60,613 nucleotides of DNA from Pseudomonadota bacterium (lineage in GTDB: Bacteria; Pseudomonadota; Gammaproteobacteria; Chromatiales; Chromatiaceae): contig JBPOHE010000007.1 of NCBI GenBank assembly GCA_052035915.1, positions 1-60,613 of the forward strand. Direction: 5' to 3'. The number at the start of each line of letters is the position of its first letter. The first letter of the stretch is position 1. The translations under genes and the position numbers were made by a program. The notes beneath the pieces were generated by a model. It saw only the letters and a list, made by a program, of their open reading frames with translations. It had not been told where the DNA came from and did not search any database. Positions 3,102 to 46,016 of this stretch are shown here, in pieces.

Positions 3102-4298
3102 TCAGCCGTTACAGCCGACAACCTTGAACTCCACCCGCCTGTCGATGGCGTCGCGCTCATCGTTAGTACCTGTGCCGATGATGTTCTCCGTATAGCCCAG
3201 GCCCTCGGTGCGGATCTTTCTGGAACTCTCACTGGCCTCGGCCCGCAGGAGTTCCATCAATCGCTCGGCCCGCTTGAGCGAGAGCTTTTTATTATGCTCC
3301 TCGCTTCCCGAACGGCTGGCATGGCCCACGATGGTGATGCAGGAACCCGATTCCGCGATCCTTTTGGCGATCTGACGCATCCAGATCGAATATTCCGGCA
3401 GTTTGTTGTTCTTGAAAAAGTCGGTCTTGTTGACCTCGAAGAGGAATTTCACGCTGATATTCCCGGCCTGCAACCCCAACTTGGTCAGGCTGGCGAAGGC
3501 CTCTTCCGCCTCCGGCATCATTCCCAGCCGATAGAAGCATTGATAGAGTCCCGAATAGGTCTTCATCACCTGTCCATCGTCCCGTTCCGCCGCCTTGGCG
3601 AACAACCCCAGTGCCCGCCGATAATCATTCTTGTCATAGGCCGCGCTGGCCTCGTCCAGCAAGGCATTGGTGGCCAGGGTATCGAAATATTCCCTGTTCG
3701 CCATGCTGCCAGCCGCCGCCCGGGCGGTGGCGATCAGGGCATCCACCCGTTTGTCTTTGATATACATGGGGCTGTCCCGATACATGGGGGTGGGCTCGAA
3801 CTCCAACTTGGCATTGGAGATCCAGGCATCCGAATGGGCCACCACCTGGCCCGATTTGGTATTCACGATGGAGACCGTCAAGTGGGGCAACTTGGCGGCC
3901 TCGCCCCGATAGTGTTCCAGTTGCATGATGCCGCTGACGACATAGGCGGCCCTGGCAAGGTTCTCCGAGGTCATCTCCTGCAATAGGAAGCGGGGCATCT
4001 TCATCCGTGCCTGGGCCGAGATCAGTTTCTCGATGTTGCGGCTGGTGCTGGTAACCTCGCCGGTATCGGCATCGATCACCGGATCAATGACAAAAACCGC
4101 CTCCTGTTCCTTCAACTTTTCCATCAGGCTGTGCTGCTCGCTGACCTGACGGAACAGATCATCCGCCATGATGCGCACCGCCGCCTCGAACGGCAGCGGC
4201 GTGGGGCGGTACCCCCGGGGGGAGACACAGGCCGACAGGATCAGAAACAGCATCAACAAGAGAGGCAATTTATAGGTTTTCATTTCCATGGTCCGCAT
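3102..4298 (-). CDS. OmpA-family lipoprotein with TPR-like repeats
   Basis: Lipoprotein signal MKTYKLPLLLMLFLILSAC. TPR-like region YDKNDYRRALGLFAKAAE...YQCFYRLGMMPEAEEAF. C-terminal OmpA domain NKTDFF...IVGHASRSGSEEHNKKLSLKRAERLMELL. The start codon is uncertain (4283/4289/4298). Confidence 0.75.
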   Translation of the reverse strand: MRTMEMKTYKLPLLLMLFLILSACVSPRGYRPTPLPFEAAVRIMADDLFRQVSEQHSLMEKLKEQEAVFVIDPVIDADTGEVTSTSRNIEKLISAQARMKMPRFLLQEMTSENLARAAYVVSGIMQLEHYRGEAAKLPHLTVSIVNTKSGQVVAHSDAWISNAKLEFEPTPMYRDSPMYIKDKRVDALIATARAAAGSMANREYFDTLATNALLDEASAAYDKNDYRRALGLFAKAAERDDGQVMKTYSGLYQCFYRLGMMPEAEEAFASLTKLGLQAGNISVKFLFEVNKTDFFKNNKLPEYSIWMRQIAKRIAESGSCITIVGHASRSGSEEHNKKLSLKRAERLMELLRAEASESSRKIRTEGLGYTENIIGTGTNDERDAIDRRVEFKVVGCNG

Positions 4299-4408
4299 GA
4301 CTTCAGAGTGTTGTTCAGGCATCAAGGTAGAGAGGGAACTCAGAGTTTGGGAAAATTTCTGCTGCGCTTGCCAATACTTGGTCGCTCGCGAGGATTTTTC
4401 ACCAACTC

Positions 4409-5593
4409 TCAGTTTCCACATTCGCGACGGTATTCTCCGGCGCCAATCATTCCATCCTGGAAGCGCTCCAATAAGCCCCGACAGCGTGCCGACATTCCAC
4501 CCGCAGACGCTTTCGGCTGAGCAGCGGTGACGAGGGGAGCGGGTTTGAATCTCGGCTGAGCCTGGGAGACGGCCTTCACCGCCGGCTTGGATTGCGCCAC
4601 CATCGTTTCCGGCGCCTTGGATTTTGCTTTTTCCCCAGCCCCGGCGATGGGCTGGGGGGCAAGCGGCTTCGCGGCTACCGAGGGGGGCAAGGGGGCCGTA
4701 GGGGGTGTCGGAGATACAGTCGGAGTCACGGGCTGTGTCTCGATTTTCGCCAGAGCACTACAGCCGGCGAAGCAGAATTCCCCTTTCAACGAGGTGTTCT
4801 CCCAGGGCACCTGGCCGCCCTGGCTCTCCTCGACCACGGCCTCCCGCACCGACTTGAACATGGCCTCCACCGTCAGGCCGGGTTGGGCCAGGAAACGCAA
4901 CAGGTGCTTGGTATAGAGCCCGTTCGCACCGCCACCATCGGCGGCCACACCGCCCGGGGCCGTGGCATAGGCGATGAGAGACCCCACAGGTCCGCTCAGG
5001 GCGGTCAGACCCCTGTTGGTACCGCTGCGAAAGCCTTTGAAGGGATTATCCCGACAGGCATCCAGGATGAGGATGGTAACCCGGGTTCCCGCCTGTTCCG
5101 CCGCTTCGAAGACCACCCCCACATCGAGGGCGCGGTTGCGGAGTTCGGTCTTGCTGGCAATACGGGCCTGCACCGGGATCAGATAATTGTTGCCATCCGC
5201 CTGCACGCCATGGCCGGAATAGTAGAACAACCCGACGCTGTCCTTCCCGAGTCGCCGCCCGAACTCGCGCACGGCCTCTTCCATGCCGGACTGATCCGCA
5301 TTCTCGCGATAGATGACCTGGAAGCCCAGTGTTTCCAGCACCACCTTCAGGGCACGGGCATCATTGACGGGATTTCGCAACGGCGATTCTTCGTAGGTCT
5401 GATTGCCGATCACCAGGGCCAGTCGTTGCTCTTCCTGCACCCGCTTGAAGCCCCGGGTTTCACTGGGGATCGGCGCCGTCGGGGCCTGGTTTCCTTCGGC
5501 GCCAAAGATCGGTTTTGACAGGATCGCACCCAGAACGGTCAGCAACAATCCTGCCCACATCCACTTGTTCGGTCTATCCAGGGGACCGGCCAT
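4409..5593 (-). CDS. Secreted caspase-like peptidase (C14 family) with Pro-rich linker and Cys-containing C-terminal tail
   Basis: Signal peptide present. LALVIGNQTYEE...FYYSGHGVQ...ILILDACRDNPF gives the caspase His/Cys dyad. The C-terminus is Pro/Ala/Lys-rich and ends ARCRGLLERFQDGMIGAGEYRRECGN. Confidence 0.75.
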   Translation of the reverse strand: MAGPLDRPNKWMWAGLLLTVLGAILSKPIFGAEGNQAPTAPIPSETRGFKRVQEEQRLALVIGNQTYEESPLRNPVNDARALKVVLETLGFQVIYRENADQSGMEEAVREFGRRLGKDSVGLFYYSGHGVQADGNNYLIPVQARIASKTELRNRALDVGVVFEAAEQAGTRVTILILDACRDNPFKGFRSGTNRGLTALSGPVGSLIAYATAPGGVAADGGGANGLYTKHLLRFLAQPGLTVEAMFKSVREAVVEESQGGQVPWENTSLKGEFCFAGCSALAKIETQPVTPTVSPTPPTAPLPPSVAAKPLAPQPIAGAGEKAKSKAPETMVAQSKPAVKAVSQAQPRFKPAPLVTAAQPKASAGGMSARCRGLLERFQDGMIGAGEYRRECGN

Positions 5594-5798
5594 CCAACCC
5601 GCGAGATTCAAACAGCAGGCCCTCCATCAGCCTGGTTAATCAAGGGTTAAGCGCCTTCGATACCTTGGTCCAAGTATCGGCTCATAATCATAAATTCCCC
5701 AAGGTATCTTATCTATTCTATTTTCAGTGCTTCAACGGGTCGGCCCCTTACCTATCGGCTGCTTCCAATTCGTCCGCGGCTTCCATGGTCGGCTGGTT

Positions 5799-6292: not shown

Positions 6293-8425
6293 TCAGTCCA
6301 GTCGCTCCCATACCGTGAGTTCGGCCAGGCTGTGCTGGAACTTGCGTTTGGTCTCCCGGATCACGAAGGGGACATCCCTGGGTTCACCGACGAGACGGAA
6401 CCGCCGGCCGAGGATCTCGCTCATGGCGTCCAGGGTGGTCAGATTCTCCCCGTCCTTTTTGAAGCCGCCGATCCATTCGTCGCGCTCGGTGTGCTCGATC
6501 AGCCAGGTGTAGGGGGAACTGATCACCAGCAGACCGCCCGGGCGGAGACGTTCGTGGATGCCGGCCAGGAATCGGCGCGGACTGTAGAGCCGATCGATCA
6601 GATTACCAGCGAAGATAAGGTCATAGTCGGCGTAGATCGGCTTGAGATTGCAGGCATCGGCCTGGAAGAACTCGACCCTGGATTCGCTGCCCACCAGTCC
6701 CGTCTCGCTCAGGCGGCTTTCGTGGTAGGACACCAGCTCTCCCTCCTCCGGCAACACATACTGGATGTAGCCCTTGGATTTCATCTCCTCGGCGATGCGG
6801 ATGAAACGCGCCGAAAAATCCAGACCCGTAACCCGGGCGAAGCCGGTCGCCAGCTCGAAGCTGGTGCGTCCCAGGGCACAGCCTATGTCCAACGCCCGCT
6901 CCCGAGGGCGATCCCGCATCAGCTCGAGGCAGAGGCGGGCACATTCCCGCGGATAATTGGCGACGCCGAAATACTCCCGGCCCCAGTGCAACTCGCAATA
7001 CTGGGCCACCAGCACATCGGTCTCGTAATAGTCGCTACGGACCCTGACCTGATGCTCCGACTCCAGATAACGAAATCCGGCATGCTGGAAAAAATGCCGC
7101 CGGAAGGCATAGCGCGCATCCTTGGTCGCCTCGTTGCCGGTGGAGATCCAGGAACCGCCCTTGATCAGGTTGTGCTTGGTGTCGAAGGTCGGGGTGGAAA
7201 AGTCGTCGTAGAGGGGATGCACCCGGAAACCCGGAAAGCCGTTGATGGGGGTCTCGGTCCACTGCCAGACATTACCGACGACATCGTAAAAAGGTCCCTG
7301 GGGAAACTCGTCCACCGGACAGGCCGAGGCCCAGTGTTCGAGATTGATATTCCCCGGCGCGCCCCGCCAGCCGTCCACATCCGGTAGGCCGCTGAGTTCC
7401 CGCAGGCGATACCACTCCTCCTCGGTGGGCAGCCGGATCGGCTTGTCCCGGCGCGCGCCGAACCAGTTGCAGAAGGCCTTGGCCTCCAGATAGTTGACCT
7501 CAACCGGCCAATTCCAGGGCATGGGGATTTCCTCCAGCATCAGCCGCAGACGCCAATCGCCAGTCGGCTGGGGGCGCCAGAACAGGGGATGCTCGGCTTG
7601 GCGATAGCCGCGCCAGGCCCAACCTTCCTCGGTCCACCAACGGGATTCGCGATAGCCGCCATCCTCGACAAAACCCAGGTATTCGGCATTGGAGACCAAA
7701 TAACGACCGGCTCGGAAGGCCGCTATCTCCTGTTCCAGTTGGCCGTATTCGTTGTCCCAGCCGTAGAAGGGGTGATCCTTGGCCTTGCCGAGCCGGAGGA
7801 TTCCGGCGGGCACCTCGACCAAGTCATTCGGCGGTGCCTCGCCGACCTTGGGACAGACGCGCCAGAAAGGATCCGGGCGCAGCCATTCCAAGGGCAACTG
7901 CCGGATGAGCACGGAGGAGGTTTCGAGGTGGATGCGCTCGTGCTCGATACCCATCATGATGGCCCAGAACGGCGAGTCCCAATCGATGGGCAGACTCAAG
8001 GGTAATTCCCGGATGACCCGGTCCAGGGTTTGACGCACCTCTTGCCGATAGGCCCAGACCTCGGCCACCGAGGGCCAGTCGTAATGGGCCTCGTTGAGAT
8101 CGTCCCAGGACATCTCGTCCACCCCTACCGCGAAGATGGACTCGAATCTCGGGTTGATACGCTCGGACAGCCGCTTCGCCAGCACCAGTTTGTTGATAAA
8201 AAACACCGCGGTGTGACCGAGGTAGAAAATGAGCGGGTGACGCAGGAGATCCGCCTTGCGATAGTAGGCCTCATCCCTGGCCAGGGTGGCGAAGAGCCGT
8301 TCGTAGATATCGAAGCTGGCGTGGAAATAGCGGCGGATGCTTTCCCGCTTGGCGTCGGGATCTCCCGAACGCAGGTCGGGCGTATAGGCGGGTTCGAGGT
8401 CTAATGACATGATCAATTCTCGCAA
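6293..8425 (-). CDS. ovoA: 5-histidylcysteine sulfoxide synthase (ovothiol biosynthesis) OvoA
   Basis: Three-domain architecture. DinB-like N-terminus with HERIHLETS. FGE-sulfatase-like middle region (GGSWISTG...RYAFRRHFFQHAGFRYL). C-terminal class I SAM methyltransferase (LDIGCALGRTSFELA). Length 710 aa. Confidence 0.85.
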   Translation of the reverse strand: MRELIMSLDLEPAYTPDLRSGDPDAKRESIRRYFHASFDIYERLFATLARDEAYYRKADLLRHPLIFYLGHTAVFFINKLVLAKRLSERINPRFESIFAVGVDEMSWDDLNEAHYDWPSVAEVWAYRQEVRQTLDRVIRELPLSLPIDWDSPFWAIMMGIEHERIHLETSSVLIRQLPLEWLRPDPFWRVCPKVGEAPPNDLVEVPAGILRLGKAKDHPFYGWDNEYGQLEQEIAAFRAGRYLVSNAEYLGFVEDGGYRESRWWTEEGWAWRGYRQAEHPLFWRPQPTGDWRLRLMLEEIPMPWNWPVEVNYLEAKAFCNWFGARRDKPIRLPTEEEWYRLRELSGLPDVDGWRGAPGNINLEHWASACPVDEFPQGPFYDVVGNVWQWTETPINGFPGFRVHPLYDDFSTPTFDTKHNLIKGGSWISTGNEATKDARYAFRRHFFQHAGFRYLESEHQVRVRSDYYETDVLVAQYCELHWGREYFGVANYPRECARLCLELMRDRPRERALDIGCALGRTSFELATGFARVTGLDFSARFIRIAEEMKSKGYIQYVLPEEGELVSYHESRLSETGLVGSESRVEFFQADACNLKPIYADYDLIFAGNLIDRLYSPRRFLAGIHERLRPGGLLVISSPYTWLIEHTERDEWIGGFKKDGENLTTLDAMSEILGRRFRLVGEPRDVPFVIRETKRKFQHSLAELTVWERLD

Positions 8426-12040: not shown

Positions 12041-13159
12041 CTACCGGGCTGTCTTCACTCTATGTTTTTCGTAGGCTTCCATTTTGTATCTTTCTAAAGA
12101 CTCAATAACCAGTTTACTGACTGTGCTTCTGGTTAATCCTTCTTCATTTGCTTCTAATCTGAGCATCGAAAGATTAAGCGTCAACTCGCCCCCCGCAGAC
12201 TCATCCTTATCAGAAAACTCAAATAGTATTCTGCATGTTCCAGAGCAATTATCGCCTTCAAACTCATAATCACATTGAAGCCCGAACAATCGGATATACG
12301 GATGAATGGATTTATCACTGACGAAAAATGTCGAGTGAAGCCCCTGTCCCTTCATCTTCATGTCTTCGATCTTATCCTTCATCCACGCAATATTCTGCGG
12401 CGGGTTAGCAACGCTGTGATCTGGTGAAAAATGAATGTCCCTGGTGTCAACAAAGCGCAGCATTGAGTGACTTACGTTTTGGGTGAGATCATTCATAAAT
12501 TGTACGCGTGATTCATTCGTGAAGTCTGAATACCTGATTATTGTTACGCCGACACTTTGTTTGATGTGCCCTTCGCTTTTGAAGTGCTTTATCAAAGCAC
12601 TTGAGACTTTGTTTCCGAAGTCGATTGTTTCTGGTGCGGTATGGCTTAGCGAAATGTTTAAGGACTTACCATCGTTGCTTTTCCGTATTTCAACACGGCC
12701 CCCATGTGTGACTGTGTTTTCTCCCCAGTTCTTAACTGGATCACGTCTATCAATCTCGAAATCCATGTAGATGTGATCTGGATTATCATTTGATGCAGTA
12801 AAATTTGACATACTTGAAAGACTGAATACACCAAACTGGTCATTCAGAAGAGTCTCGTAGTCAGCCATATCTGGCAAAGACTCAAGCAAGTTGGATTCAG
12901 AATCCCAGCTAATAGTGCGAGTTTTAGATTTTGGCGATTCCTCTTTTGTCCTATAGCTCTCGCGCAAGTCCACGTACTCAAAGGGAGACAGCCCGGTCTT
13001 GATGAGAATGGGGCCTAGAACTTCCTTCTGATCTGACCCTGTAAATACCCCTCTTGCGCGCAAAACGTTTTTTAATTCGGCGTTCTTAACCTTTGTCTGG
13101 CCAATTAGCTGGCGCAAAAAATCCCTAGTAGGAAGCAAGACCTCTTCGTTGTTATTCAT
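12041..13159 (-). CDS. Hypothetical protein B of islet two-gene operon (372 aa, no recognisable domain)
   Basis: About 42-45% GC against a roughly 63% background. It overlaps the upstream gene by 8 nt (translational coupling). No Walker, HEPN, TIR or SIR2 motifs were seen. Confidence 0.6.
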   Translation of the reverse strand: MNNNEEVLLPTRDFLRQLIGQTKVKNAELKNVLRARGVFTGSDQKEVLGPILIKTGLSPFEYVDLRESYRTKEESPKSKTRTISWDSESNLLESLPDMADYETLLNDQFGVFSLSSMSNFTASNDNPDHIYMDFEIDRRDPVKNWGENTVTHGGRVEIRKSNDGKSLNISLSHTAPETIDFGNKVSSALIKHFKSEGHIKQSVGVTIIRYSDFTNESRVQFMNDLTQNVSHSMLRFVDTRDIHFSPDHSVANPPQNIAWMKDKIEDMKMKGQGLHSTFFVSDKSIHPYIRLFGLQCDYEFEGDNCSGTCRILFEFSDKDESAGGELTLNLSMLRLEANEEGLTRSTVSKLVIESLERYKMEAYEKHRVKTAR

Positions 13160-14102
13160 TATTCAAGCTCCTGTAGTCTGGCCGAAAGCTAGCTACTTTT
13201 ATCCGGGTAAAGATATCGCTCTCAAAACCTGTGGCAGCCCTCTTGACTGCATCACCATGACTAGACTCAACATAATTAGGAAATAGAAACAGCAACGTGC
13301 AACTCATGTCTTGAGTGTATTCTTTGGCTGCTTGGATTAGCCTGCGCAGAGAGTCTTGCGCAAAACCTTCTATGGTAGACAGACAGAAAATATCCTGATC
13401 ATGCCGGGACTGTGCCTTAATGATTAGCGGAATCAAAGGTGAGGTCAGAAATTCAAGCGGACATACCTTTCCATATCTCGATATGGTTTTGTCAACATAA
13501 CTTAGTGAAGTCTCAGGATAATAAAAGTGCAGGCGATCGGAGTCGTACTCATGTCTCAAATACTGCACGGTGTCGAATATAAAGTTTATTCTCTGATTAT
13601 CAACCACATGAAACGACTCAAAGCTCCAATCGGAATCAAGTTGTGAGTTTGCAATTTTTGATACGACATCATCATATGTTTCTTCGTTACTCGATAGCCA
13701 GAACAATACCCCGGAATCCCTACTTTTCGTTGTTCGCCCCAACAATTCCTGCTGTTGCTTTTTTAACTCTGAATGTTTGTAACACTCCAAGGTTTCGACT
13801 AAGTCCTTGGCGTGCGATTTGAAAGTCGACTTTGGATTGTTTTCGTACGGGTTTTGTGAATGCTTAACAGATATTACCGCGCTTTCGGCAGTCGAGCCTT
13901 CAAGTGGGCTTCTATAGCAGTACAAATAGTCAATTCCATGTGTTTCTCTTTTTCCAGTCTTTGACCCTTCACTGGCATGTTTGCTTGGCTTTCTACATGG
14001 CAGTTCTTGCCCAGATAAAACGCCTTCCCACCCCAATAAATGGAAGAAATTGCCAACGATATTCTCGCCAATTTCTCCAATTTTTTTAGATTTTTCACCC
14101 AT
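13152..14102 (-). CDS. Hypothetical protein A with N-terminal PD-(D/E)xK (Mrr/Hjc-like) nuclease signature, 316 aa
   Basis: The N-terminal approx. 85 aa read IGEIGENIVGNFFHLLGWEG...THGIDYLY...ESAVISVKH. This fits the E...D...(E/S)xK pattern of restriction-endonuclease-like folds. The remaining approx. 230 aa are unassigned. It is the first gene of the operon, with an AT-rich promoter region upstream (14103-14220). Confidence 0.55.
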   Translation of the reverse strand: MGEKSKKIGEIGENIVGNFFHLLGWEGVLSGQELPCRKPSKHASEGSKTGKRETHGIDYLYCYRSPLEGSTAESAVISVKHSQNPYENNPKSTFKSHAKDLVETLECYKHSELKKQQQELLGRTTKSRDSGVLFWLSSNEETYDDVVSKIANSQLDSDWSFESFHVVDNQRINFIFDTVQYLRHEYDSDRLHFYYPETSLSYVDKTISRYGKVCPLEFLTSPLIPLIIKAQSRHDQDIFCLSTIEGFAQDSLRRLIQAAKEYTQDMSCTLLFLFPNYVESSHGDAVKRAATGFESDIFTRIKVASFRPDYRSLNNE

Positions 14103-14861: not shown

Positions 14862-16409
14862 TCAAGGATTCACCGCCAAGGGCGCCTCGAAGTGTTGGGT
14901 GGTGAAGACCTCGAAGGCGGCGCCTTCCTTCCAGGCGTCCTCCGGCAGACCAGCCTTGCGCGCCAGATGAGAGAGGGTTTGTTCCCGATTCCAACCCTGT
15001 TCCCGGGCCACTTCGGGGAGAAAAACCGCGCTCCGACCTTCCTTGTGCAGGATGATGCCGTGCACACCGGGCTGGAAGTCCTCGACTGAGGGGATGGACT
15101 GGGGCGGGCTGAGCACGCTGACGGTTAGTTCCAGCTCTTTCAATTCCTCCGGCTGCACCGGCGGGAAGCGGTAATCCTGCTGAGCGGCGTTGAGGCCGTT
15201 GAGGATCACTGCCCGATACAGGGGCTCCTTGGGCAGGATGTAGCCGATGCAACCGCGCAGCTCGCCATGTTTCTTCAGGGTGACGAAGGCCCCCGAGGGT
15301 TGACGACCGGCCTCCGGCATCTCGGCCAGGAGTCTTTCATAGTCCGCTGCGATGCCGCTTTGGGGTAGCACGGCATCGATGACCGCGATCCGGGCCAATC
15401 GATGCAGCCAGGGCAGCAGTTCCGGAGTCGGGGCCGTCTCGGCGCGCTTGGGCGCGGCGGCCTTGGACAGAGGGGCCGGATCATAGACGCCGATGCTGAG
15501 GTAACTGACCGAATGGTCCCATTGCTGGGTCAAGGCGCCGCTGGTGTCGTATTGGATCAGCTCGACCTTGGAGCCGGGATTGAGCAGATGGACCAGGATC
15601 AGCAAAGGGGAGAGACCGCAGGCGGTAATGCCGGTACGCCTATGGTATTCCGCCAGGCCTGGGGCATCCTGTTTGGTGATAAATTCAAAGGCCCCCAGAT
15701 CGAGGTTCCGCAGGCGCTCGGGCAATTGCTGATCCGGCGGGAAAGGCAGATAGTCGTATCTGGGACCGTAGTGGGTGAAGTCGCCGGAGATCAGCAACAG
15801 GCTGGTGTCGTCCAACAAAGGGCGCAGCAACTCGGCGGCAGCGGCATAGTCCTGTTCCTCCATGACACCGACGAGTACGGGCAGGAGTTGCCAGCCCGGG
15901 GCCAGACTGCGTTGCAGGAAGGGAAGCTGGATCTCCAGGCTATGTTCGCCCAGGCGGATCGCCTCGTCTCCATGCACCAGGGGTGATGCCCGCAAGGTGG
16001 CGATCGCCGCCGTATCCAGGGGGATGCTGCCCAGAGGAGTGGCATAGTGACTGGCTTCTGGTATCGCCAGACCACGAAAGCCACCGCCATGGGCCGGTCC
16101 AACGGCGATCACCCGTTTCAGTGCCCGCCCCTGGAGCTGGATATACCCCTTGGCCGCGGTGGCGCCTGAATATTGATACCCGGCATGGGGACTCACCAAT
16201 GCCCGCAGCTCGGTGGGCGGCGGGCTGGGGGCCGGTCCGGCCTGCTTGAGCAACTGGTCGATAATCTCCTGGAGTTGGGCCGGCTCCTGCGGATACCAGT
16301 AGCCGGCGATGGCCGAGGGCCGGATGGAGTCGGCGTAGACCGTACCCAGTCCCCAGAACAACCCCAGACAGAGTCCCAGAAAACCCCAGCGCATTGGATC
16401 TCGCCTCAT
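14862..16409 (-). CDS. Fused AmmeMemoRadiSam system proteins B (MEMO1-like) and A (AMMECR1 domain), secreted/periplasmic
   Basis: Signal peptide present. AGYWYP...LVSPHAGYQYSG...VIAVGPAH is the MEMO part. The C-terminal LKKHGELRGCIGYILP is the AMMECR1 hallmark. The start was trimmed to the ATG after the SD GGGGAGGGGGAG. The upstream part of the ORF is GC-rich read-through. Confidence 0.8.
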   Translation of the reverse strand: MRRDPMRWGFLGLCLGLFWGLGTVYADSIRPSAIAGYWYPQEPAQLQEIIDQLLKQAGPAPSPPPTELRALVSPHAGYQYSGATAAKGYIQLQGRALKRVIAVGPAHGGGFRGLAIPEASHYATPLGSIPLDTAAIATLRASPLVHGDEAIRLGEHSLEIQLPFLQRSLAPGWQLLPVLVGVMEEQDYAAAAELLRPLLDDTSLLLISGDFTHYGPRYDYLPFPPDQQLPERLRNLDLGAFEFITKQDAPGLAEYHRRTGITACGLSPLLILVHLLNPGSKVELIQYDTSGALTQQWDHSVSYLSIGVYDPAPLSKAAAPKRAETAPTPELLPWLHRLARIAVIDAVLPQSGIAADYERLLAEMPEAGRQPSGAFVTLKKHGELRGCIGYILPKEPLYRAVILNGLNAAQQDYRFPPVQPEELKELELTVSVLSPPQSIPSVEDFQPGVHGIILHKEGRSAVFLPEVAREQGWNREQTLSHLARKAGLPEDAWKEGAAFEVFTTQHFEAPLAVNP

Positions 16410-16657
16410 CTCCCCCTCCCCTTTTGGTTCAAGATTCATCCTCCGGCAGCGCCCGATAATAGGCCGCCTCCGGATACCCGTAGGGTGCGCAAAGCGCACC
16501 AGAATGGTGGGCGATGCTTCGACTTCGCTCAGCACAGGTGCCCACCCTAGCGTTCCCGGGCACCACAGGCACAGCGGCGCCCAGCACCACCCCGGCACAC
16601 AGCCACAAGAAATACCGTCGATCCGCCTCCCATTCATCTGTGTTCATACTCTCCTCC

Positions 16658-17638
16658 TCAGTGCCAGACCCCGGCGATGGGCTGTTGACAACTCGGGCAG
16701 CGACCATCGGCGGTCAGATGATTGGCGATGACCCGCATGCCGCTGCGTTGGACCAACAGGGTGCCGTCCCTTGGGCAGAAGGTGGATTCCGCTTCGTGCC
16801 CGAAAAGATTGCCGATATAGACATGATGCAGTCCCGCGTCCCGCGCCTCCTCCCGCGCCCGCACCAGGCTGGTCTCCGGCGTCGGCGGCAGGCTGCGCAT
16901 GCGGTACATGGGCACGAAGCGCAGGAAATGCAGCGGCGTATCCGCCCCCAGTTCGTCCCGCATCCAGCGCGCCAGGCGCCGCACCAGGGCCATATCGTCG
17001 TTGAGACTGGGGATCATGAGATTGGAGACTTCGAGCCAGACCTTTTCCTCACGAAAGATCACCATGGCGTCCAGCACCGGCTTGAGGCTGCCGCTGCACA
17101 CCCGGCGGTAGAAGCCGTCGTCGAAGGCCTTGATGTCCAGGGTGGTGGCGTCGAGCCAGCGGCAGAGTTCGCGCAGGGGTTTGGGGTTGATGTAGCCGGC
17201 GGTGACGAAAACATTGTTCAGCCCCTTGGCCTTCGCCAGCTCGGCGCTATCCCGCACATATTCGTAGAAGACGATGGGATCGTTGTAGGTATAGGCCAGC
17301 CCCTGGCAATGACGATCCAGCGCCTCTTGCACCAGACCGGCGGGCGGCAGGGAGTAGATCTGTTCCATCTCCTCGCCGCCGCGCTGGGAGAGTTGCCAGT
17401 TCTGGCAATTGAGGCAATGCAGGTTGCAGCCGGCGGTGCCGATGGAAAACACCGAGGTGGTCGGGCGGAAATGATAGAAGGGTTTCTTTTCGATGGGGTC
17501 GATGTGGACCGCCGAGGGGCGTCCATAGGTGGTCGCCCGCAGTTTCCCCTCGATATTGACCCGCACCCGGCAGTCCCCCGCCGCCCCTTCGGGGATGACG
17601 CAGAGACGGGGACAGAGTTCGCACTGGACCTTGGACAC
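16658..17638 (-). CDS. AmmeMemoRadiSam system radical SAM enzyme
   Basis: GTAGCNLHCLNCQNWQLS gives the CxxxCxxC cluster typical of this family. Length 326 aa. Confidence 0.85.
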   Translation of the reverse strand: MSKVQCELCPRLCVIPEGAAGDCRVRVNIEGKLRATTYGRPSAVHIDPIEKKPFYHFRPTTSVFSIGTAGCNLHCLNCQNWQLSQRGGEEMEQIYSLPPAGLVQEALDRHCQGLAYTYNDPIVFYEYVRDSAELAKAKGLNNVFVTAGYINPKPLRELCRWLDATTLDIKAFDDGFYRRVCSGSLKPVLDAMVIFREEKVWLEVSNLMIPSLNDDMALVRRLARWMRDELGADTPLHFLRFVPMYRMRSLPPTPETSLVRAREEARDAGLHHVYIGNLFGHEAESTFCPRDGTLLVQRSGMRVIANHLTADGRCPSCQQPIAGVWH

Positions 17639-17689
17639 GCTGTTCGAGACCTGGGAATCAGGGAGCCGTGTTTAATTTTAGACCGTTGA

Positions 17690-17932
17690 TCAGCGCGGCC
17701 GTTCGCGCCCCGCTTCCACCGGCTTGGACCAGAGCGCCTCACGCATCTGTAACTCCCCCGATTGCAGCCGCCGCGCCAGGGCCTCGGTATCGATGCGGCG
17801 CCAGCCGCCCACCGGGGCCATCTCTTCCTGACCGCTGGCGAGAAACAGCCCAATGGCGATCAGGTTGGCGAGAACGAAGCCGAGAAACCTGAATTCGCGC
17901 GGGCGGAGATGGCGCCAGAGAAGAGCTTTCAT
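17690..17932 (-). CDS. Small single-TM protein, translationally coupled to upstream giant gene
   Basis: An 80-aa ORF whose start overlaps the stop of 17929-21621 by 4 nt. It has a hydrophobic segment FLGFVLANLIAIGLFLA. Confidence 0.35.
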   Translation of the reverse strand: MKALLWRHLRPREFRFLGFVLANLIAIGLFLASGQEEMAPVGGWRRIDTEALARRLQSGELQMREALWSKPVEAGRERPR

Positions 17933-20900
17933 GGCCTTCGAGTATAGGCTTCAGGCGGGATCACAGGATGTTCCTGGCCCAGTGCCGGCTCGCTCGGTTT
18001 CCGCGGCCTGAGCCTGGTGTCCCTGGCGGTGAGACAGCGGTTGCAGTGGATGCAGTCGATATCCAGCGCTTCCTGCACCCCGAGATCGCAGTGTTCGATC
18101 CGCCGTTGCGGGGCAAACCGCCGCAGCAGGGCGATCTTGTTGCCGAGGGCGACGAAGGCGCCGAAGGGACAGAAATAGCGGCACCAGAAGCGATAGTAGA
18201 ACAGCGAGCCCAAGAGACTGACGGCGATGACGCCCCCCATCCAGCCCCGCCAGTGGCCGCCGAAACAATGCTGCATCGGGTTGAAGGTGGCCCAGATCTC
18301 CTCACCGCCGATCCAGACCCCCAGCAGCACCAGCGCCAGCAACAGGAACTTGAGATAGCGCAGCCGCGACTCCAACGTCCGCTCCGGGTAGCTGCGCAGA
18401 CGCAGCCAGCGGCCCAGGCGGGAGATGAACTCCTGGAGCGCGCCGAAAGGACAGACATAGCCGCACCAGACCTGACCGAACAAGAGCGCGGTCAGGCCGA
18501 CGAAGCCGAGCAGCAGCCAGCGCAGGGGGTTGGTGGCCAGGTCGGAGAGCCGCCCCTGACTCAGGTTGACCAGGTCGATCTCAGTCACCAGGGTATTCAG
18601 CCAGAGGCCCAGCACCAGCAGAGTCGCCGCCTGGAACAGCAGCCGCGCCGGTTCCGATCCCGAGAGATAGACCGGGAAAAAGATCAGCAACAGCGCCAGG
18701 CTGGTCAAAAATCCCGGGCTAAGCCAGGCCGGGGCGGTTTCGATCTCGGCCTGGGGGGCGAAGCTGCTACCGAAGACCTCCCGACCCGCCAGGCGGGCGG
18801 CCTGGTTGATCGTTTCCAGGGCCGCGCGGCTGCTGACCGTGGCCCCGCTGAGACCATCCAGGCGTTGCAGGCTCAGCGGCGGCTCGGTCAGGCTGTGTCC
18901 CGCCAGTCGCTCCAGCCAGGTGTCGATGCCGGCGACATAGGCGGGGGTCTCGTTCGAGCCCAGATAGCGCACCCCCCGCAGCCGACCCTGTCGATCGAAC
19001 GACACCAGCAGGTCGATGGGACCGGCGTAGCCCCGGATATCTCCGGCCACCGCCCGGGTCGCCAGGCTCACCGTCTCCCCCGCCTCGCCGCCCTGACCGA
19101 GATAATGGGGGAAGGGTCGCTCCCGTAGCTCGAAGCTGGCCGAACCACTGAGTCTCGCCAGGGTGACATCGTCGAAATGGAGTTGCGGACCGGGTTGAGC
19201 GGCGCGATTGAGCAACATGAGCACAAAGCTGGTGAGCACCAGAAACCCCAGTCCCCAGCTCAGGCCCTGATAGGGAAAGGCCCGCCCGCCTCTCGCCACC
19301 AGCGCCGGGAGGCGCTCCGGGGCATATTCGGCGAAGAGCAGGGGGACGCAGACCAGTAGCGCCATCATCGCCAGCACCCAAGCCGTCCCCGCCACCCCGA
19401 GCAAAGGCACCATGAGCGCCCCGGTCAACAGGCCGCCGAGCGCCCCGCCCAGGCTGTCCGCCGCCTCGATGAGACCACTGGACTGCACCGTCTCCTCGGT
19501 ATCCAGATGGGCCAGATGCACCCCCAGGGGGAAACCGGCGCCGGTGACCAGCCCCGCCAGACCGCACAGCCCGAGATAGACCGCCTCCTGAGCCCCGGCC
19601 CCCAGGCCGTCGAGAAACTCGAAGCCCGCGGGCAAAGCGGCGCAACCGGCGGCGATGACCAACATCAGACCGATCAGCGCCAAGCCGGGACGGCGCCGCC
19701 GGGGCAGCGAGCGCCCGAACACCCCGGCGCCGATCACCAGCCCGGTCATGAAGAGCCCATTGAGCAGGGCTATCCGGCTGAAGACAAAGCCCAGATGGGC
19801 CTGGTAGGCGAACAGCAGACAGAGCTGCACCGCCATGGCGATCAATCCCTGCACCGCCAGGGCGAGGATCGCCGCCCATCTCCGGGTACGGCGTCGTGGG
19901 GCTCCGGCGAGGGCGGACTTGAGCATCAAGAGCCAGACCATCACCCCCAGGGGCACCAGGTAGGGCCAGGGGCCCAGGGCCCGCGCCGACTCCAGCCAGG
20001 TCACCAGGGCCGAGGCGGTGAACTTCCCCCAGAGCAGCATGTTGAGGTAATAGGTCAGGGGGCGGGCATCGGTATTGATCTCCGCCTCCTCTTGTTCGAG
20101 TTGGGAGCGCACATAGGCGATCCGCCCCGGGTCCAGCAGGTTGTGGAATGAAGTAGCGGGGAAACGGTGTTCGTCCAGAGGCACCACCAGATAACGCCGG
20201 GACAGCTCCCAGGCGTCTTCGGTCACCCGTTCCGCCAGGGCGGCGGCGCAATAGAGGTGCTGATCCCCGGGGGCGATGGCGATGAAGGGCCACACCGGCT
20301 TCAGGCTGTGATAGACCGAGGCGCTGTAACTCTTCACCTCCCGCCCGAGATAGTTGGAGGCGCTGCTCACCGCCGTGCAGAACACCCCTTCCGGCGTCAT
20401 GAGATGCTGAATACGCCGATAAAACTCCAGGGTGAAATAACGATTGCCGTGGGCGCTGCTGGGGTCGTCGCGCAACACCAGCACCAGGTCATAGGGAGAC
20501 GGCTCCCGCGGTTCCTTGAGAAAACGCCGCCCATCCATGAACACCAGCCGCACCCGGGGGTCCTTCAAGGCCGCCTGGGTGACCTCGGGTAAGTGTGGTC
20601 GCATGCGCTCGAAGGCGAGCTGGTCCTGCTCGATCAGATCGATCCGCTCGACCGGATAACGCAACAGGGCCTCGACCAGCCCGCCGGCGCTGCCGCCGAA
20701 CAAGAGCAGCCGTTTCGGCGCCTCGGCCTGGGAATAGACATAGGCGGCTTCCTGGTCGGCTTCCCGTTGCGCCGGAAAACTCTCGCCGATGCGTCCGTCG
20801 GCGACCAGGGAAAACTGGTCGCCGGTGCGTCCCAGAGCGAGATGACCGTATCTGGTCTCCACCGCGTCCACCCATTGCAGCGCCGGTTGCAGGGTGGCGA

Positions 20901-21621
20901 ACCTCAGCGCCTCCAGCCTCGGCTCCAACCAGGAACTCAGGGGGGTGAAGCCCAGGGCGAGTCCCATCGTCAGCACCAGAGCCAATCCCAGCCGCCGCCA
21001 GCCGCCGCTCCCCAAGGGCCAGGCCGTCAACCCCAATAAGAGCGCCACCACCCCCAGGGTGCGCCAGGTCCCCAGCCATTCGACAAAGACGAAGGTGAAC
21101 AGAAGCCCTCCCAGCAGCGCCCCGATGGCCTCGAAGATATAGAGGCCGGAAACCGCGCCCAGGGTGCCGGGGAGATCCTGATCCGCCTGCCGATCCGGAC
21201 GCAGACCCCGCGCCGCCAAGGGAAAGGCGAGACCGATCAGGATACCGGCGGGCGCCACCACCAGGGCGATGGCGACGAACACCTGTCCGAGAGGGATGAG
21301 TTCGGTCGGCGAGACATCCAGCAACAGCCGCACCCCCCGGGTCACCAGGATCTGCCCGGCGAGCACCAGCGGCAATAACAACAGCGTCCCGCTCAACACC
21401 GGCAGCGGCTGCCGCACCCAGTCCCGCTCCCGCCAATACACCACCAGCGCCGAACCGACGGCGATCCAGAACAACCAACTGCCGTAGAAGGCCCCCAGGG
21501 TGACCTCGTTGCCATAGAACACCACCAGGCACTCGCGGATGAGCATCGCCTGGCTGAGCTGGGAATAGACCCCGAGCACCAAGAGGGTCAGAAAGAGATT
21601 GTGTTGCCTGCGATGGACCAT
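17929..21621 (-). CDS. Giant polytopic fusion protein: spermidine-synthase-like domain, FMN_bind domain and NosR/NapH-like 4Fe-4S polyferredoxin membrane domain
   Basis: N-terminal multi-TM region. Spermidine synthase fold LLLFGGSAGGLVEALLRYPVERIDLIEQD...DPRVRLVFMDGRRFL...YDLVLVLRDDPSS...FTLEFY...TPEGVFCT. A further TM block. FMN_bind-like region GYAGPIDLLVSFDRQGRLRGVRYLGSNETPAYV. C-terminal CGYVCPFGALQEF, CRYFCPFGAFVALG and CIHCNRC. Start trimmed to the ATG after GGGGAGGGGAT. Confidence 0.75.
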   Translation of the reverse strand: MVHRRQHNLFLTLLVLGVYSQLSQAMLIRECLVVFYGNEVTLGAFYGSWLFWIAVGSALVVYWRERDWVRQPLPVLSGTLLLLPLVLAGQILVTRGVRLLLDVSPTELIPLGQVFVAIALVVAPAGILIGLAFPLAARGLRPDRQADQDLPGTLGAVSGLYIFEAIGALLGGLLFTFVFVEWLGTWRTLGVVALLLGLTAWPLGSGGWRRLGLALVLTMGLALGFTPLSSWLEPRLEALRFATLQPALQWVDAVETRYGHLALGRTGDQFSLVADGRIGESFPAQREADQEAAYVYSQAEAPKRLLLFGGSAGGLVEALLRYPVERIDLIEQDQLAFERMRPHLPEVTQAALKDPRVRLVFMDGRRFLKEPREPSPYDLVLVLRDDPSSAHGNRYFTLEFYRRIQHLMTPEGVFCTAVSSASNYLGREVKSYSASVYHSLKPVWPFIAIAPGDQHLYCAAALAERVTEDAWELSRRYLVVPLDEHRFPATSFHNLLDPGRIAYVRSQLEQEEAEINTDARPLTYYLNMLLWGKFTASALVTWLESARALGPWPYLVPLGVMVWLLMLKSALAGAPRRRTRRWAAILALAVQGLIAMAVQLCLLFAYQAHLGFVFSRIALLNGLFMTGLVIGAGVFGRSLPRRRRPGLALIGLMLVIAAGCAALPAGFEFLDGLGAGAQEAVYLGLCGLAGLVTGAGFPLGVHLAHLDTEETVQSSGLIEAADSLGGALGGLLTGALMVPLLGVAGTAWVLAMMALLVCVPLLFAEYAPERLPALVARGGRAFPYQGLSWGLGFLVLTSFVLMLLNRAAQPGPQLHFDDVTLARLSGSASFELRERPFPHYLGQGGEAGETVSLATRAVAGDIRGYAGPIDLLVSFDRQGRLRGVRYLGSNETPAYVAGIDTWLERLAGHSLTEPPLSLQRLDGLSGATVSSRAALETINQAARLAGREVFGSSFAPQAEIETAPAWLSPGFLTSLALLLIFFPVYLSGSEPARLLFQAATLLVLGLWLNTLVTEIDLVNLSQGRLSDLATNPLRWLLLGFVGLTALLFGQVWCGYVCPFGALQEFISRLGRWLRLRSYPERTLESRLRYLKFLLLALVLLGVWIGGEEIWATFNPMQHCFGGHWRGWMGGVIAVSLLGSLFYYRFWCRYFCPFGAFVALGNKIALLRRFAPQRRIEHCDLGVQEALDIDCIHCNRCLTARDTRLRPRKPSEPALGQEHPVIPPEAYTRRP

Positions 21622-21728
21622 GATCCCCTCCCCTTGCGGGAAAGTATGGCCCGTTCCGGCGGCTCTGGAAGAGACCGCGGGCCGGGAGGCTCCGTTCATG
21701 GCAAGCCTGTCGAACCACTCGTGGATCG

Positions 21729-21848
21729 TCCGGGCACAGCCGCCTGAAGGAAGATATTTGTTCTCAAAAAGAGAACAATAAGCATATTTGACAGGCTATT
21801 ATTCTCTTATTAAGAACACTTTTGAGGCCAATTCGGTCCATGCCCGAG
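21729..21848. mobile_element. MITE-C family copy (C1) in divergent promoter region
   Basis: Core TGTTCTC-aaaaa-GAGAACAAT...ATTATTCTC-ttatta-AGAACA. GC-rich arms CCGGGCAC.../...CCATGCCCGAG. Confidence 0.5.
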
Positions 21849-22167
21849 CCGTTTCGAGGTTTTCTCTATTCCGCTCCGGGTTGTTGTCCGAGCGACCAGG
21901 GTCAGCCACTCGGTCGGGCCTCCGGGTCCGATATCAGTGATGGAGCTCGGACGGGGTCCGACGTTTGAAATATCGTCCTGGAGTTGTCGGGCTGTAGCTG
22001 TACCCAAGACTCCCCGCCGGTGCCATGTGGAGAAGGGGGATTTTCTGGCCTGAACCCCCGCGGCCAGGATGGCCCGGACCTTTCATGGACGCCATCGGAC
22101 CAATCTGAGAAAATGCGCACGTTTCGCTAGTCGCTGAATTTGGCGAACAGCGGTTTTTCCATGGATC

Positions 22168-22192
22168 GAGCCGGGATCACCCCGGCTTTTTT
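22168..22192 (+). terminator. Rho-independent terminator-like hairpin immediately upstream of yjeT-like gene
   Basis: GAGCCGGGATCACCCCGGC followed by TTTTTT. Confidence 0.4.
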
Positions 22193-22200
22193 GTGAAACT

Positions 22201-42503: not shown

Positions 42504-43886
42504 TCAGTTTCCGGATTTTCCAGGCCACATCGCCTTGAAGCAGATGATGAGAAACAGCAGACCGCCGATGATGGCAATGAGGCCGCCAAGCCCCATCAAT
42601 CCCATGCCGAGGGTCTCCTGCAAGGTATGCAGCACCTGGGCGCTACCGGCGGTTTTGCGCTGTACCCCATAGCCGCCCGACCAGGCCAGACCGAGCACAT
42701 GGAGCAACTGCCCACTGCCGTAAATGATAGGCTGCCAGCGCACCATCCAGCCCTCCGGGCGGCGAAACCCAAGCCGCGGGAGCAGATGATAGGTCACCCC
42801 CATATAGGCCAGGGTGACGCTGACGATGGACCCATGGTAGTGGGCAGGCACCGTGACATTGGCGCCACTGATCAAGAAACCGATGATCCCGCCGGCGCCG
42901 AAGAGGATGATGGAAAACCAGAGCGCGTTGCGTTCCGGTGCCTGTTCCACTGGCGAACGCCCCGCCCGCGCCAGGGCCCAAAGAATGGCCAGTCCTATCG
43001 GCAGACTGGAGAGACCACCGCCGTACTGCATGAGCCAGGTGAGCCCAAGCATGTGGTAGGCCGAACCGATCTCGTACCTCAGGTACAGGGGCAGGATCAG
43101 GAGCACGGGCGCCGCGCCCAGGCCCAGTATCAGGATGGCGACCCGCGGGCTCAGCGGTGGTCGGGCCTGGGAGACCCAGGCCAGCCACAACCAGGCGACC
43201 AACATCAACTGGGTATGGGTGAACTGAATGGCATGGCCGCCACCCCAGAAAAGGACCTCGTAATATTGGGCACCGATCAAGGAGGACGGAGTCCCCTTAT
43301 AGGAGCCCGCCAAGGCCAGCAGGGCGATCAAAGCGGCGACTTGTCCGGTGATCAGGCCAAACCCCAGCGTCTTCTCTCCCGGACCAGCCATTGCCATGGA
43401 AGAGCGGCTGAACAGGGAATGCAGCACCAGGATCAGGAAACCAAGACCGAACAACCCGAGTCCGACGAAAAAGACCGGTGCCTGCAACACCGGCACATAG
43501 TTGTTCATCAAGGGACCACCGGCCCCGACGAATGGCGAGATCGAAATCACCCCGGCCCCGGCCACGGCCAGATAGAGGGCCCCACGACCGCAGGCCCGGC
43601 AGCGGTCGTTCAGGTTCAGACTCCACAACACCCCCGCAAAGGCCAGGAACCACACCAGTACGGTCAGATCCACATGCACCACCAAGGCGGTATGGAAAAA
43701 ATCCACCCAGGGGATGAGATCCTGAATCTTGGGTGTCCGTGACAAGACGATGAGAATAGTGAACACACCGCCGACCACCAGGGAGCCCAGGGCCAGCCAC
43801 AGCCAACCTATGGCCAGGGAACGAGGCTCCCCGGTGGGAACGCGGAGCACGAAGGCCCCATCAATGGCATCTGTTTGTTGGTTCAT
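42504..43886 (-). CDS. Divergent heme-copper-oxidase subunit I-like 12-TM protein (NorB/NnrS-like?)
   Basis: 12 TM helices with conserved His in TM2 (HTALVVHVDL), LFWGGGHAIQFTH (compare LFWFFGHPEVY) and HYHGSIV in place of the HH CuB pair. Confidence 0.5.
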   Translation of the reverse strand: MNQQTDAIDGAFVLRVPTGEPRSLAIGWLWLALGSLVVGGVFTILIVLSRTPKIQDLIPWVDFFHTALVVHVDLTVLVWFLAFAGVLWSLNLNDRCRACGRGALYLAVAGAGVISISPFVGAGGPLMNNYVPVLQAPVFFVGLGLFGLGFLILVLHSLFSRSSMAMAGPGEKTLGFGLITGQVAALIALLALAGSYKGTPSSLIGAQYYEVLFWGGGHAIQFTHTQLMLVAWLWLAWVSQARPPLSPRVAILILGLGAAPVLLILPLYLRYEIGSAYHMLGLTWLMQYGGGLSSLPIGLAILWALARAGRSPVEQAPERNALWFSIILFGAGGIIGFLISGANVTVPAHYHGSIVSVTLAYMGVTYHLLPRLGFRRPEGWMVRWQPIIYGSGQLLHVLGLAWSGGYGVQRKTAGSAQVLHTLQETLGMGLMGLGGLIAIIGGLLFLIICFKAMWPGKSGN

Positions 43887-45995: not shown

Positions 45996-46016
45996 CCCGA
46001 GGCGACTTGATGGGTA

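Follow-up and report, generated by a model that had tools for sequence, protein, structure and literature searches.

Memo and AMMECR1 are conserved from archaea to humans and have been linked to human disease. Together with the radical S-adenosylmethionine (SAM) enzyme AmrS they form the three-gene AmmeMemoRadiSam system, for which the papers accessible to us give no biochemical function. The [4Fe-4S] cluster of a radical SAM enzyme needs a one-electron donor, usually a flavin mononucleotide (FMN) protein, and to our knowledge this chemistry counts as strictly cytoplasmic, given its need for SAM, iron-sulfur (Fe-S) assembly and a low-potential reductant. The ordinary AmmeMemoRadiSam systems that we examined, in Ideonella and T. 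lovleyi, are signal-less and stand-alone. Here, we describe an amr locus in a window of 60,613 nucleotides (nt; contig JBPOHE010000007.1 of assembly GCA_052035915.1, the whole stretch analysed, on which all positions are counted), where the Memo-AMMECR1 protein is predicted to be exported and is linked to a giant membrane protein. The Memo-AMMECR1 fusion (found, for example, in Ideonella) and the adjacency of the three components are shared with ordinary systems, whereas AmrS is here truncated at its N-terminus and accompanied by a mini-protein with a twin-arginine translocation (Tat) signal, or fused to such a signal in other phyla. Comparison of related loci shows that the five genes form a conserved module, present in at least eight bacterial phyla. 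With slightly better than even confidence, we read the locus as an extracytoplasmic AmmeMemoRadiSam system on a dedicated membrane platform.

Linkage and export signals of the amr genes

A protein search with the giant gave 282 matches at E <= 1e-10. The best 120 of them were inspected, and all are full-length homologues with 51-97% identity; with a single exception, they share the three Pfam domains of the giant. From a scan of one genome per species, which returned 464 stretches, 80 loci were kept, and the counts over 81 loci given below comprise these and the window. Neighbour families were defined by tblastn with the window proteins together with all-against-all clustering of open reading frames (ORFs). 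The kept loci belong to Gammaproteobacteria, Magnetococcus, Thermodesulfobacteriota, Planctomycetota, Bacteriovoracaceae, Nitrospirota, Omnitrophota, Acidobacteriota, Ignavibacteriota, Halobacteroidaceae and others.

Only three neighbour families are widely shared: the giant itself (81/81), AmrS (54/81) and the Memo-AMMECR1 fusion (AmrB-AmrA, or AmrBA; 44/81, median length 533 amino acids (aa)). Among the 33 well-flanked loci, with at least 5 kb on either side, 27 contain AmrS and 23 Memo-AMMECR1, and AmrS is never more than 2.7 kb away from the giant. A giant homologue adjoins both genes in Pseudomonadota, Thermodesulfobacteriota, Planctomycetota, Bdellovibrionota, Nitrospirota, Omnitrophota, Acidobacteriota and others. 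The order is giant-80aa-AmrS-small-AmrBA in Gammaproteobacteria and AmrS-small-AmrBA-giant in Planctomycetota, and the genes are divergent or convergent in other lineages. As these orders differ, the linkage is kept by selection and not by common descent of one arrangement; it is far above chance. Many loci outside the proteobacteria encode a "short" giant, which consists of the membrane domain and the domain resembling spermidine synthase (SpeE) only, so that the constant core there is AmrS plus this membrane/SpeE-like protein. Neither an ApbE nor a Tat gene was conserved among the clustered neighbour families. A prediction made earlier for this DNA (the original prediction) had proposed such a neighbourhood survey and named missing linkage in other genomes as an argument against itself; the linkage turned out to be conserved.

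In the window, all three AmmeMemoRadiSam components are encoded on one strand, as they are in 44 related loci, and every hallmark of the system was found except an intact AmrS N-terminus. AmrS matches the Pfam Radical_SAM domain, scores 374.2 bits with TIGR04337 (cutoff 220), is PflA-like and has its CX3CX2C motif as CNLHCLNC. The Memo part reaches 200.1 bits with TIGR04336 (cutoff 26) and 181.6 bits with PF01875, and contains the motifs PHAG, GPAH, EHSLE, SGDFTHYG and ACG. For the AMMECR1 part (PF01871), TIGR04335 gives 163.1 bits (cutoff 99), and the motifs RGCIG and DYRF correspond to RGChG and DxRa as defined for the family (PMC2034487).

The locus is listed in Table 1. ORFs together with Pfam and NCBIfam confirmed the four minus-strand genes of the original prediction with their domains, and likewise the 4-nt overlap of the gene for an 80-aa transmembrane (TM) protein with the giant gene. 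The number of genes had to be corrected to five, as the 248-nt space between AmrS and Memo-AMMECR1 holds an additional 72-aa ORF, and the giant, announced with 1231 aa, is one residue shorter when read from its likely start codon, ATG 21621. For Memo-AMMECR1, ATG 16409 is the most plausible start. From the giant to Memo-AMMECR1 the genes are separated by -4, 51, 10 and 19 nt, and from this overlap and these short gaps we infer that the five genes are co-transcribed. Independent pipelines annotate both the 80-aa and the 72-aa ORF as genes (the 80-aa ORF also in the closest long relative, L081), and both are intact in strain variants. Both are likewise annotated in public collections, where the 72-aa sequence recurs exactly, and the NCBI name of both is "hypothetical protein".

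Table 1. Genes of the amr locus, modules of the giant protein and the adjoining intergenic region (RBS, ribosome-binding site; MFS, major facilitator superfamily)
Feature	Position	Strand	Remarks
Giant membrane protein gene	17929..21621	-	1230 aa; ATG 21621 (likely start) behind RBS GGGGAGGGG; full ORF 17929..21699
MFS N-lobe (TM1-6) and one extra outward TM	20890..21621	-	
SpeE-like (spermidine-synthase-fold) domain	19969..20889	-	PF01564 63.7 bits; predicted periplasmic
One inward TM, MFS C-lobe (TM7-12), one outward TM	19198..19968	-	loops RRRTRR and RRRR predicted cytoplasmic
FMN_bind domain	18730..19197	-	PF04205 40 bits, RnfG-like matches; predicted periplasmic, predicted covalent FMN
NapH-like membrane polyferredoxin	17929..18729	-	PF12801 x2 (Fer4_5), 49.2 bits
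80-aa single-TM protein gene	17690..17932	-	overlaps giant gene by 4 nt
AmrS (radical SAM) gene	16658..17638	-	326 aa, GTG start
72-aa twin-arginine small protein gene	16429..16647	-	own RBS GGAGGAG
Memo-AMMECR1 (AmrB-AmrA) fusion gene	14862..16409	-	515 aa; ATG 16409 (most plausible start) behind GGGGAGGGGGAG
Divergent intergenic region	21622..22200		579 bp, between giant gene (-) and 64-aa ORF/hisZ/purA (+); presumed promoter region

Divergently from the giant gene runs a 64-aa ORF at 22201, with hisZ and purA behind it, and the intergenic region is presumed to contain the promoter of the operon. A consensus scan of the locus found no convincing promoter, no good sigma-70 match and no internal terminator, and an Rfam search returned nothing in the amr locus. 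Upstream of the giant, an AT-rich stretch at ~21750-21815 contains an 11/12 inverted repeat, AAGAGAATAATA...TATTGTTCTCTT. Alignment of the upstream region with that of L081, whose giant is 87% identical, revealed no conserved regulatory element, and the inverted repeat is specific to the window. In L081 (1-10000) the operon also lies near purA, but a two-component system, two CNNM/CorC genes and a cupin gene intervene; with different genes between operon and purA, the upstream context is not fixed. On the plus strand a strong terminator-like hairpin (22168-22188) is located just before the 64-aa ORF, with no obvious plus-strand gene upstream.

A hydrophobic export segment (signal peptide, lipobox or anchor) precedes the Memo domain in 41/41 homologues with a complete N-terminus, to which this count was restricted. 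In the window it is a Sec-type signal peptide (N-terminus MRRDPMRWGFLGLCLGLFWGLGTVYA/DS), which fits the secreted Memo-AMMECR1 fusion of the original prediction. Gammaproteobacteria have signal peptides and many Planctomycetota signal anchors, and lipoboxes such as ..LLCSC, ..TAASC or ..SIAAC occur in Nitrospirota, Omnitrophota, Acidobacteriota and some others. AmrS of the window has no signal peptide; five residues precede its first Cys, and the EAxFYxKL segment found at the N-terminus of canonical members is missing. Canonical cytoplasmic AmrS proteins open with such a motif (e.g. MNEALFYSKL..). Signal-less examples, taken for comparison from plasmids, are T. lovleyi (MNEALFYSKLDDNHVQCMLCP), Segatella (MKECRYYTKIEEG..VRCELCP) and Ideonella (..ARWWHLLDDGRMQCDLCP).

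On a Segatella hominis plasmid (L084, 4411-6828), an AmrB-AmrA fusion carries the signal peptide MRKIVLVVLLTMCMMMEA; the adjacent AmrS is normal and signal-less, and there is no giant nearby. This may be a separate, possibly split-compartment amr variant in Bacteroidota. A second radical SAM family, about 27% identical to AmrS, is found near the cluster in L062 (1374-2456, minus strand), L022 (12837-13715), L030 (10865-11752) and L080 (17343-18230). The L062 protein has its own Tat-like signal (ITRRDFIKRSLLLGG..), and Tat-signal radical SAM proteins may thus not be confined to AmrS.

The Tat consensus is S/T-R-R-x-F-L-K followed by a hydrophobic region. The 72-aa protein of the window (MNTDEWEADRRYFLWLCAGVVLGAAVPVV...PEAAYYRALPEDES) combines the twin-arginine motif DRRYFLW with a hydrophobic stretch and the C-terminal sequence PEAAYYRALP. 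Among 39 loci in which AmrS is adjacent to Memo-AMMECR1, 36 have an ORF of 40-75 aa between the two genes, and an equivalent is also present in the Omnitrophota loci L047 and L069. These small proteins consist of three parts, namely a consensus-like twin-arginine motif (TRRKFV, TRRDFL, GRRRFL...), one hydrophobic stretch and a short basic tail, which ends in an aromatic motif (READFYRPHDLAG, KEARYYRTLAG, KKAMFWKRLG or SKWSG). In Pfam and NCBIfam, the window's 72-aa protein reaches no model, and family searches of both small proteins gave no match beyond a marginal one of a single homologue to the Tat-signal model TIGR01409 (17.6, cutoff 16.7).

The small ORF is missing from three loci, all of them Terriglobia, and AmrS is N-terminally extended there. 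In these and in other short-giant loci, the extension comprises a Tat motif, a hydrophobic stretch and ..REAKFYEKLPYKKIKCKLCPREC. A database search retrieved at least 120 Tat-extended AmrS proteins of about 350-450 aa, mostly from Acidobacteriota, which NCBI names merely "AmmeMemoRadiSam system radical SAM enzyme"; the extension DRRxFLKAASLPCLAAC, a Tat motif followed by a lipobox, is nearly invariant in 39/39 aligned sequences. Every AmrS with a small ORF behind it starts 4-8 residues before the first Cys and lacks the motif. Motif on AmrS and small ORF are mutually exclusive: eight AmrS proteins have the motif and no ORF, and 38 have the ORF and no motif. As canonical AmrS starts with this motif and the Tat-fused forms carry it in the same position, the motif of the small ORF belongs to the enzyme and not to a substrate. 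Going by sequence, the mini-protein is a Tat signal joined to the detached N-terminal segment of AmrS, the pattern expected for export by hitch-hiking. The small ORFs had also been considered as precursors of ribosomally synthesised and post-translationally modified peptides (RiPPs), and this candidate was rejected on the same motif.

The 80-aa protein has one TM helix and a C-terminus, ..REALWSKPVE.., which resembles the normal AmrS N-terminal segment. Its gene lies immediately upstream of AmrS in the same frame, with three stops between them. The family is limited to Gammaproteobacteria, with 10 loci, and relatives show the motif as REAxWYHP.

Modules and predicted topology of the giant protein

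The giant consists of an MFS transporter with an inserted SpeE-like domain, followed by FMN_bind and a NapH-like polyferredoxin. An AlphaFold2 (AF2) model of residues 1-1200 (from a query begun one codon upstream of the ATG) has a predicted local distance difference test score (pLDDT) of 86.8 and a predicted template modelling score (pTM) of 0.85. The membrane domain shows the 12-TM two-lobe fold of the MFS, and the closest resemblance of this part is to H+-coupled organic-cation exporters (cation:H+ antiporters).

Between the lobes, the SpeE-like domain has a complete fold, with a Foldseek TM-score of about 0.72 to SpeE structures and agreeing PDB alignments. The aminopropyltransferase-like fold of the original prediction is therefore present, while the signature of a functional aminopropyltransferase is not, as catalytic aspartates are missing. 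In the window, GGSAGG stands for GGGDGG and LRDDP for DxxDP. A residue census over 72 homologues in true residue numbering found L, A, V or I at the Asp position of GGGDGG, with no Asp among the common residues, and N or L family-wide at the first Asp of DxxDP. The nucleoside-binding acidic positions are retained (E331 mostly, D333, D363 and D378), and R365, N393, R394 and T397 are new invariant residues. In SpeE structures, the GGGDGG Asp selects decarboxylated SAM (dcSAM) and the DxxDP aspartates serve catalysis and amine binding. On these grounds we read the domain as one that would still bind an adenosyl compound without transferring an aminopropyl group; SAM would suit it better than dcSAM, because the carboxylate-repelling Asp is lost and new arginines are present. 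All SpeE equivalog scores of the giant are below cutoff (PRK03612 112.9, cutoff 472; PRK00811 80.4, cutoff 260; TIGR00417 56.8, cutoff 249.55).

In the C-terminal modules, conservation was scored in sets of 23 and 54 homologues: in the flavinylation motif DGLSGAT the D, G, A and T positions are invariant or nearly so, and the NapH-like cysteines, which form two CX3CP motifs (CGYVCPFG and CRYFCPFG) and a C-terminal C..CxxCxxC cluster, are invariant. The giant stays far below the cutoffs of the RnfG models, of NosR (68.1, cutoff 1000), of the NapH/MauN family (54.7, cutoff 213.05) and of NapH (50.1, cutoff 234). With a PF12801 membrane Fe-S protein and a predicted extracytosolic FMN_bind domain with flavinylation motif it fits the NapH-like flavinylated class as defined in PMC8238504, and flavinylation is predicted. 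Modules of this class are modular extracytosolic electron conduits to or from periplasmic enzymes (PMC8238504).

One topology follows from hydropathy, from the helices mapped in the AF2 model and from the positive-inside rule. The N-terminus would lie inside, followed by six TM helices, one outward helix and the SpeE-like domain outside; one helix leads back in, and after the six helices of the C-lobe and another outward helix the FMN domain would lie outside, followed by the NapH-like TM helices with their cysteines inside. Predicted cytoplasmic loops contain 24 K/R residues and periplasmic loops 4, with all Arg-rich loops on the cytoplasmic side. The only alternative topology is disfavoured, because it would put these loops outside and the FMN domain inside, contrary to known FMN_bind and NapH-like proteins. 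Homology of the two lobes supports the same arrangement, since each of them precedes one outward helix and a soluble domain. Both members of a Cys pair in the SpeE-like domain are present together in 12/13 sequences, which suggests a disulfide. Overall, we consider a periplasmic position of the SpeE-like domain quite probable.

In relatives lacking the fusion, L052 and L058 have separate tblastn matches to the FMN_bind part, and L058 alone to the NapH-like part. L086 contains a separate Fer4_5 NapH-like gene and two DUF362 genes, and in L039 and L061 a DsbD_2 membrane protein adjoins AmrS. Because other transmembrane relays appear where the FMN/NapH part is missing, a transmembrane route for reducing power seems to be a recurrent need of amr loci. 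DUF362 proteins recur next to Tat-type AmrS (L043 12063-13070, L085 4935-5945, L086 3062-5369); the L043 copy has the Tat signal MNPQRRTFLRR, and these proteins may be a further periplasmic partner.

A candidate extracytoplasmic pathway and its alternatives

In the pathway that we propose, AmrS would fold and receive its Fe-S clusters in the cytoplasm, bind the 72-aa Tat protein via its detached N-terminal segment and cross the membrane as a hitch-hiker. Memo-AMMECR1 would be exported by the Sec or the lipoprotein pathway. The NapH-like module would move electrons from a cytoplasmic donor to the covalent periplasmic FMN, which would reduce the [4Fe-4S] cluster of AmrS, as flavodoxin does in the cytoplasm. 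More speculatively, the MFS part could export SAM or recover methionine/5'-deoxyadenosine, with the SpeE-like domain holding SAM for AmrS; alternatively, SAM could be bound before export and regenerated at each turnover. The substrate could be an envelope lipid, for example an isoprenoid, or an envelope protein. The fit of the NapH-like/FMN module supports the original prediction, in which electron transfer energises a pathway in the periplasm or membrane. As a possibility that we advance tentatively, and rate somewhat below even, this would be the first radical SAM system outside the cytoplasm, with a folded AmrS exported by Tat, one membrane protein supplying both low-potential electrons and SAM, and envelope modification together with Memo-AMMECR1.

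Several points weigh against an extracytoplasmic AmrS. The enzyme of the window has no signal of its own, and its export relies on the inferred complex with the 72-aa protein; in Gammaproteobacteria, the model leaves the second motif-bearing small protein, that of 80 aa, unaccounted for. In an AF2 model of a Tat-fused Acidobacterial AmrS (P0121), the first 112 residues have a pLDDT below 50 and packing of the motif is not visible. Radical SAM enzymes are oxygen-sensitive, and we know of no SAM in the periplasm. Quinol-level electrons are too weak for a radical SAM cluster, so that a low-potential cytoplasmic donor must be assumed. In a plain 12-TM MFS protein the central loop is cytoplasmic. 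According to DSSP, the fifth/sixth and eleventh/twelfth helices of the giant's AF2 model are single helices of 54-56 residues, and the periplasmic placement of the SpeE-like domain requires that these two be taken as TM hairpins. Finally, Segatella pairs a signal-bearing Memo-AMMECR1 with a signal-less AmrS, so that split localisation may occur.

The pathway could indeed be divided between compartments, a version close to the original prediction. AmrS would then remain cytoplasmic, perhaps held by the small proteins at the inner face of the membrane, and be reduced by the cytoplasmic Fe-S end of the NapH-like module; its product, a lipid or a protein in transit, would be flipped or exported by the MFS part and finished by periplasmic Memo-AMMECR1 with electrons from FMN. 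The missing signal peptide of the window AmrS and the Segatella pair are in agreement with this, as is an MFS fold suited to the export of an intermediate; SAM and the Fe-S assembly machinery are cytoplasmic. The same holds for the gene of a polyprenyl synthetase located between short giant and AmrS in two Omnitrophota genomes (L047 6193-7176, L069 5472-6458), which may hint at an isoprenoid substrate. A 2019 study by Burroughs and colleagues reportedly covered extended Memo gene contexts and suggested an isoprenoid. A division of this kind conflicts, however, with the RRxFLK Tat motifs fused to AmrS in several phyla and the lipobox in Acidobacteriota, both of which predict translocation of the enzyme. 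Moreover, a Tat signal anchors with its N-terminus inside and the rest outside, which would place the AmrS-docking motif in the periplasm, and AmrS motif and small ORF are strictly complementary. We therefore consider divided compartments rather unlikely, though a serious competitor to the extracytoplasmic pathway.

A role in polyamine metabolism is suggested by the Spermine_synth Pfam match and the partial matches to the PRK03612 and speE models: the giant would be a membrane-bound aminopropyltransferase fused to an amine exporter, and a polyamine-modified component of the envelope would be the target or the partner of the amr genes. We regard this as improbable, since all NCBIfam aminopropyltransferase equivalogs are far below cutoff (112.9, cutoff 472, for PRK03612), the family as a whole lacks both the GGGDGG Asp that selects dcSAM and the first of the DxxDP aspartates, and dcSAM is not available at the predicted extracytoplasmic position of the domain. 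The small Tat-motif proteins might instead be RiPP-like or cofactor precursor peptides, whose aromatic C-terminal motif AmrS and Memo modify before or after export. They are short ORFs adjoining a radical SAM gene and share this conserved motif, and according to its title one study reports binding of an aromatic phosphopeptide by Memo (Qiu et al. 2008). The same motif is, however, the ordinary N-terminus of canonical AmrS and is fused to AmrS at the same position in other lineages, which marks it as a part of the enzyme and makes a precursor peptide very improbable. An adjacency by chance or lineage-specific accident, devoid of a functional link, is hardly credible, given that at least eight phyla show these partners together, with gene orders rearranged and genes fused or split.

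Surroundings of the operon and comparison with known systems

Downstream of the amr operon follow a 760-nt gap with a drop to 43% G+C and an unrelated pair of overlapping antiphage genes, GapS4a (349 bits, cutoff 270) and GapS4b (383 bits, cutoff 300), at 12041-14102 on the minus strand. They lie within a stretch of 43% G+C at ~10-14 kb, and, as this low-G+C island is directly downstream of the operon, the pair resembles a defence islet that has been inserted; GapS4a and GapS4b are not among the models of PADLOC 2023. Further away, a complete OvoA, a 5-histidylcysteine sulfoxide synthase with a C-terminal methyltransferase used in ovothiol biosynthesis, is encoded at 6293-8425 (minus strand; TIGR04344, 703 bits; TIGR04345, 346 bits). 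A caspase-domain protein (Peptidase_C14) at 3102-5611 (minus strand) overlaps a protein with an OmpA/MotB-like C-terminus, both with weak PADLOC matches (caspase; ZorB-like). At 193-1361, a phage-type integrase gene on the plus strand adjoins a tRNA-Arg(TCG) on the minus strand, and the two may mark the border of an integrated element. On the other side of the operon, the region 42504-49592 (minus strand), which has a strong AT skew, encodes two divergent proteins resembling subunit I of heme-copper oxidases (COX1 43 and 203 bits, with a far higher cutoff for CtaD) and a cytochrome b/4Fe-4S ferredoxin/FlpD-HdrA-like fusion, an unusual respiratory module.

We found no earlier report of an exported radical SAM system with a transporter/redox membrane partner. 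The accessible literature contains no exported radical SAM enzyme and no phrase such as "periplasmic radical SAM", and nothing in it connects any of the three AmmeMemoRadiSam components with Tat or with spermidine-synthase-like, FMN_bind or NapH-like proteins; a partial earlier description is possible, as it does not cover Burroughs et al. 2019. The variant described here offers an experimental handle on Memo and AMMECR1, with a fixed location and obligatory partners, namely a transporter, a flavin and Fe-S conduit and a Tat escort, which narrow the substrates to envelope molecules. If the extracytoplasmic pathway is correct, the view of radical SAM chemistry as restricted to the cytoplasm would change, and SAM export by bacteria would be implied. 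Furthermore, a candidate function would emerge for the "fused MFS/spermidine synthase" proteins and for some of the many uncharacterised NapH-like flavinylated systems, and the split-signal mini-gene, a Tat signal plus a segment of the passenger, would be an unusual form of Tat hitch-hiking.

Both Tat hitch-hiking and Tat lipoproteins are established (PMC10924467). In the known cases, such as the small and large subunits of NiFe hydrogenase or formate dehydrogenase, a signal-less cofactor subunit is exported with a signal-bearing partner, and we propose the same scheme here. In contrast to these, the putative signal-bearing partner of the amr loci has only 40-75 aa and seems to consist of the signal and the passenger's own detached N-terminal segment. 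PflA, the closest solved relative of the PflA-like AmrS, and other cytoplasmic radical SAM enzymes are activated by flavodoxin or ferredoxin, whereas the donor proposed for AmrS would be a periplasmic domain that is tethered to the membrane, carries covalent flavin and receives its electrons across the membrane.

The giant itself can be compared with two groups of proteins. With NF037959 (fused MFS/spermidine synthase) it scores 34.3, below the cutoff of 40, as it also does with PRK03612 (membrane-bound SpeE); no function or amr linkage is attached to either family name. Unlike in these families, the SpeE-like domain is inserted here between the MFS lobes via extra TM helices and lacks the catalytic aspartates. 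With the NosR, PceC and NapH-like clusters (Meheust et al. 2021, PMC8238504) the giant shares an FMN_bind domain ahead of a multi-TM CX3CP protein with cytoplasmic Fe-S cysteines; the text and accessible supplements of that study do not mention Memo, AMMECR1, spermidine or radical SAM. In contrast to those systems, the flavinylated module of the giant is fused behind an MFS/SpeE-like unit, and its partner is a radical SAM system instead of a respiratory reductase or oxidase.

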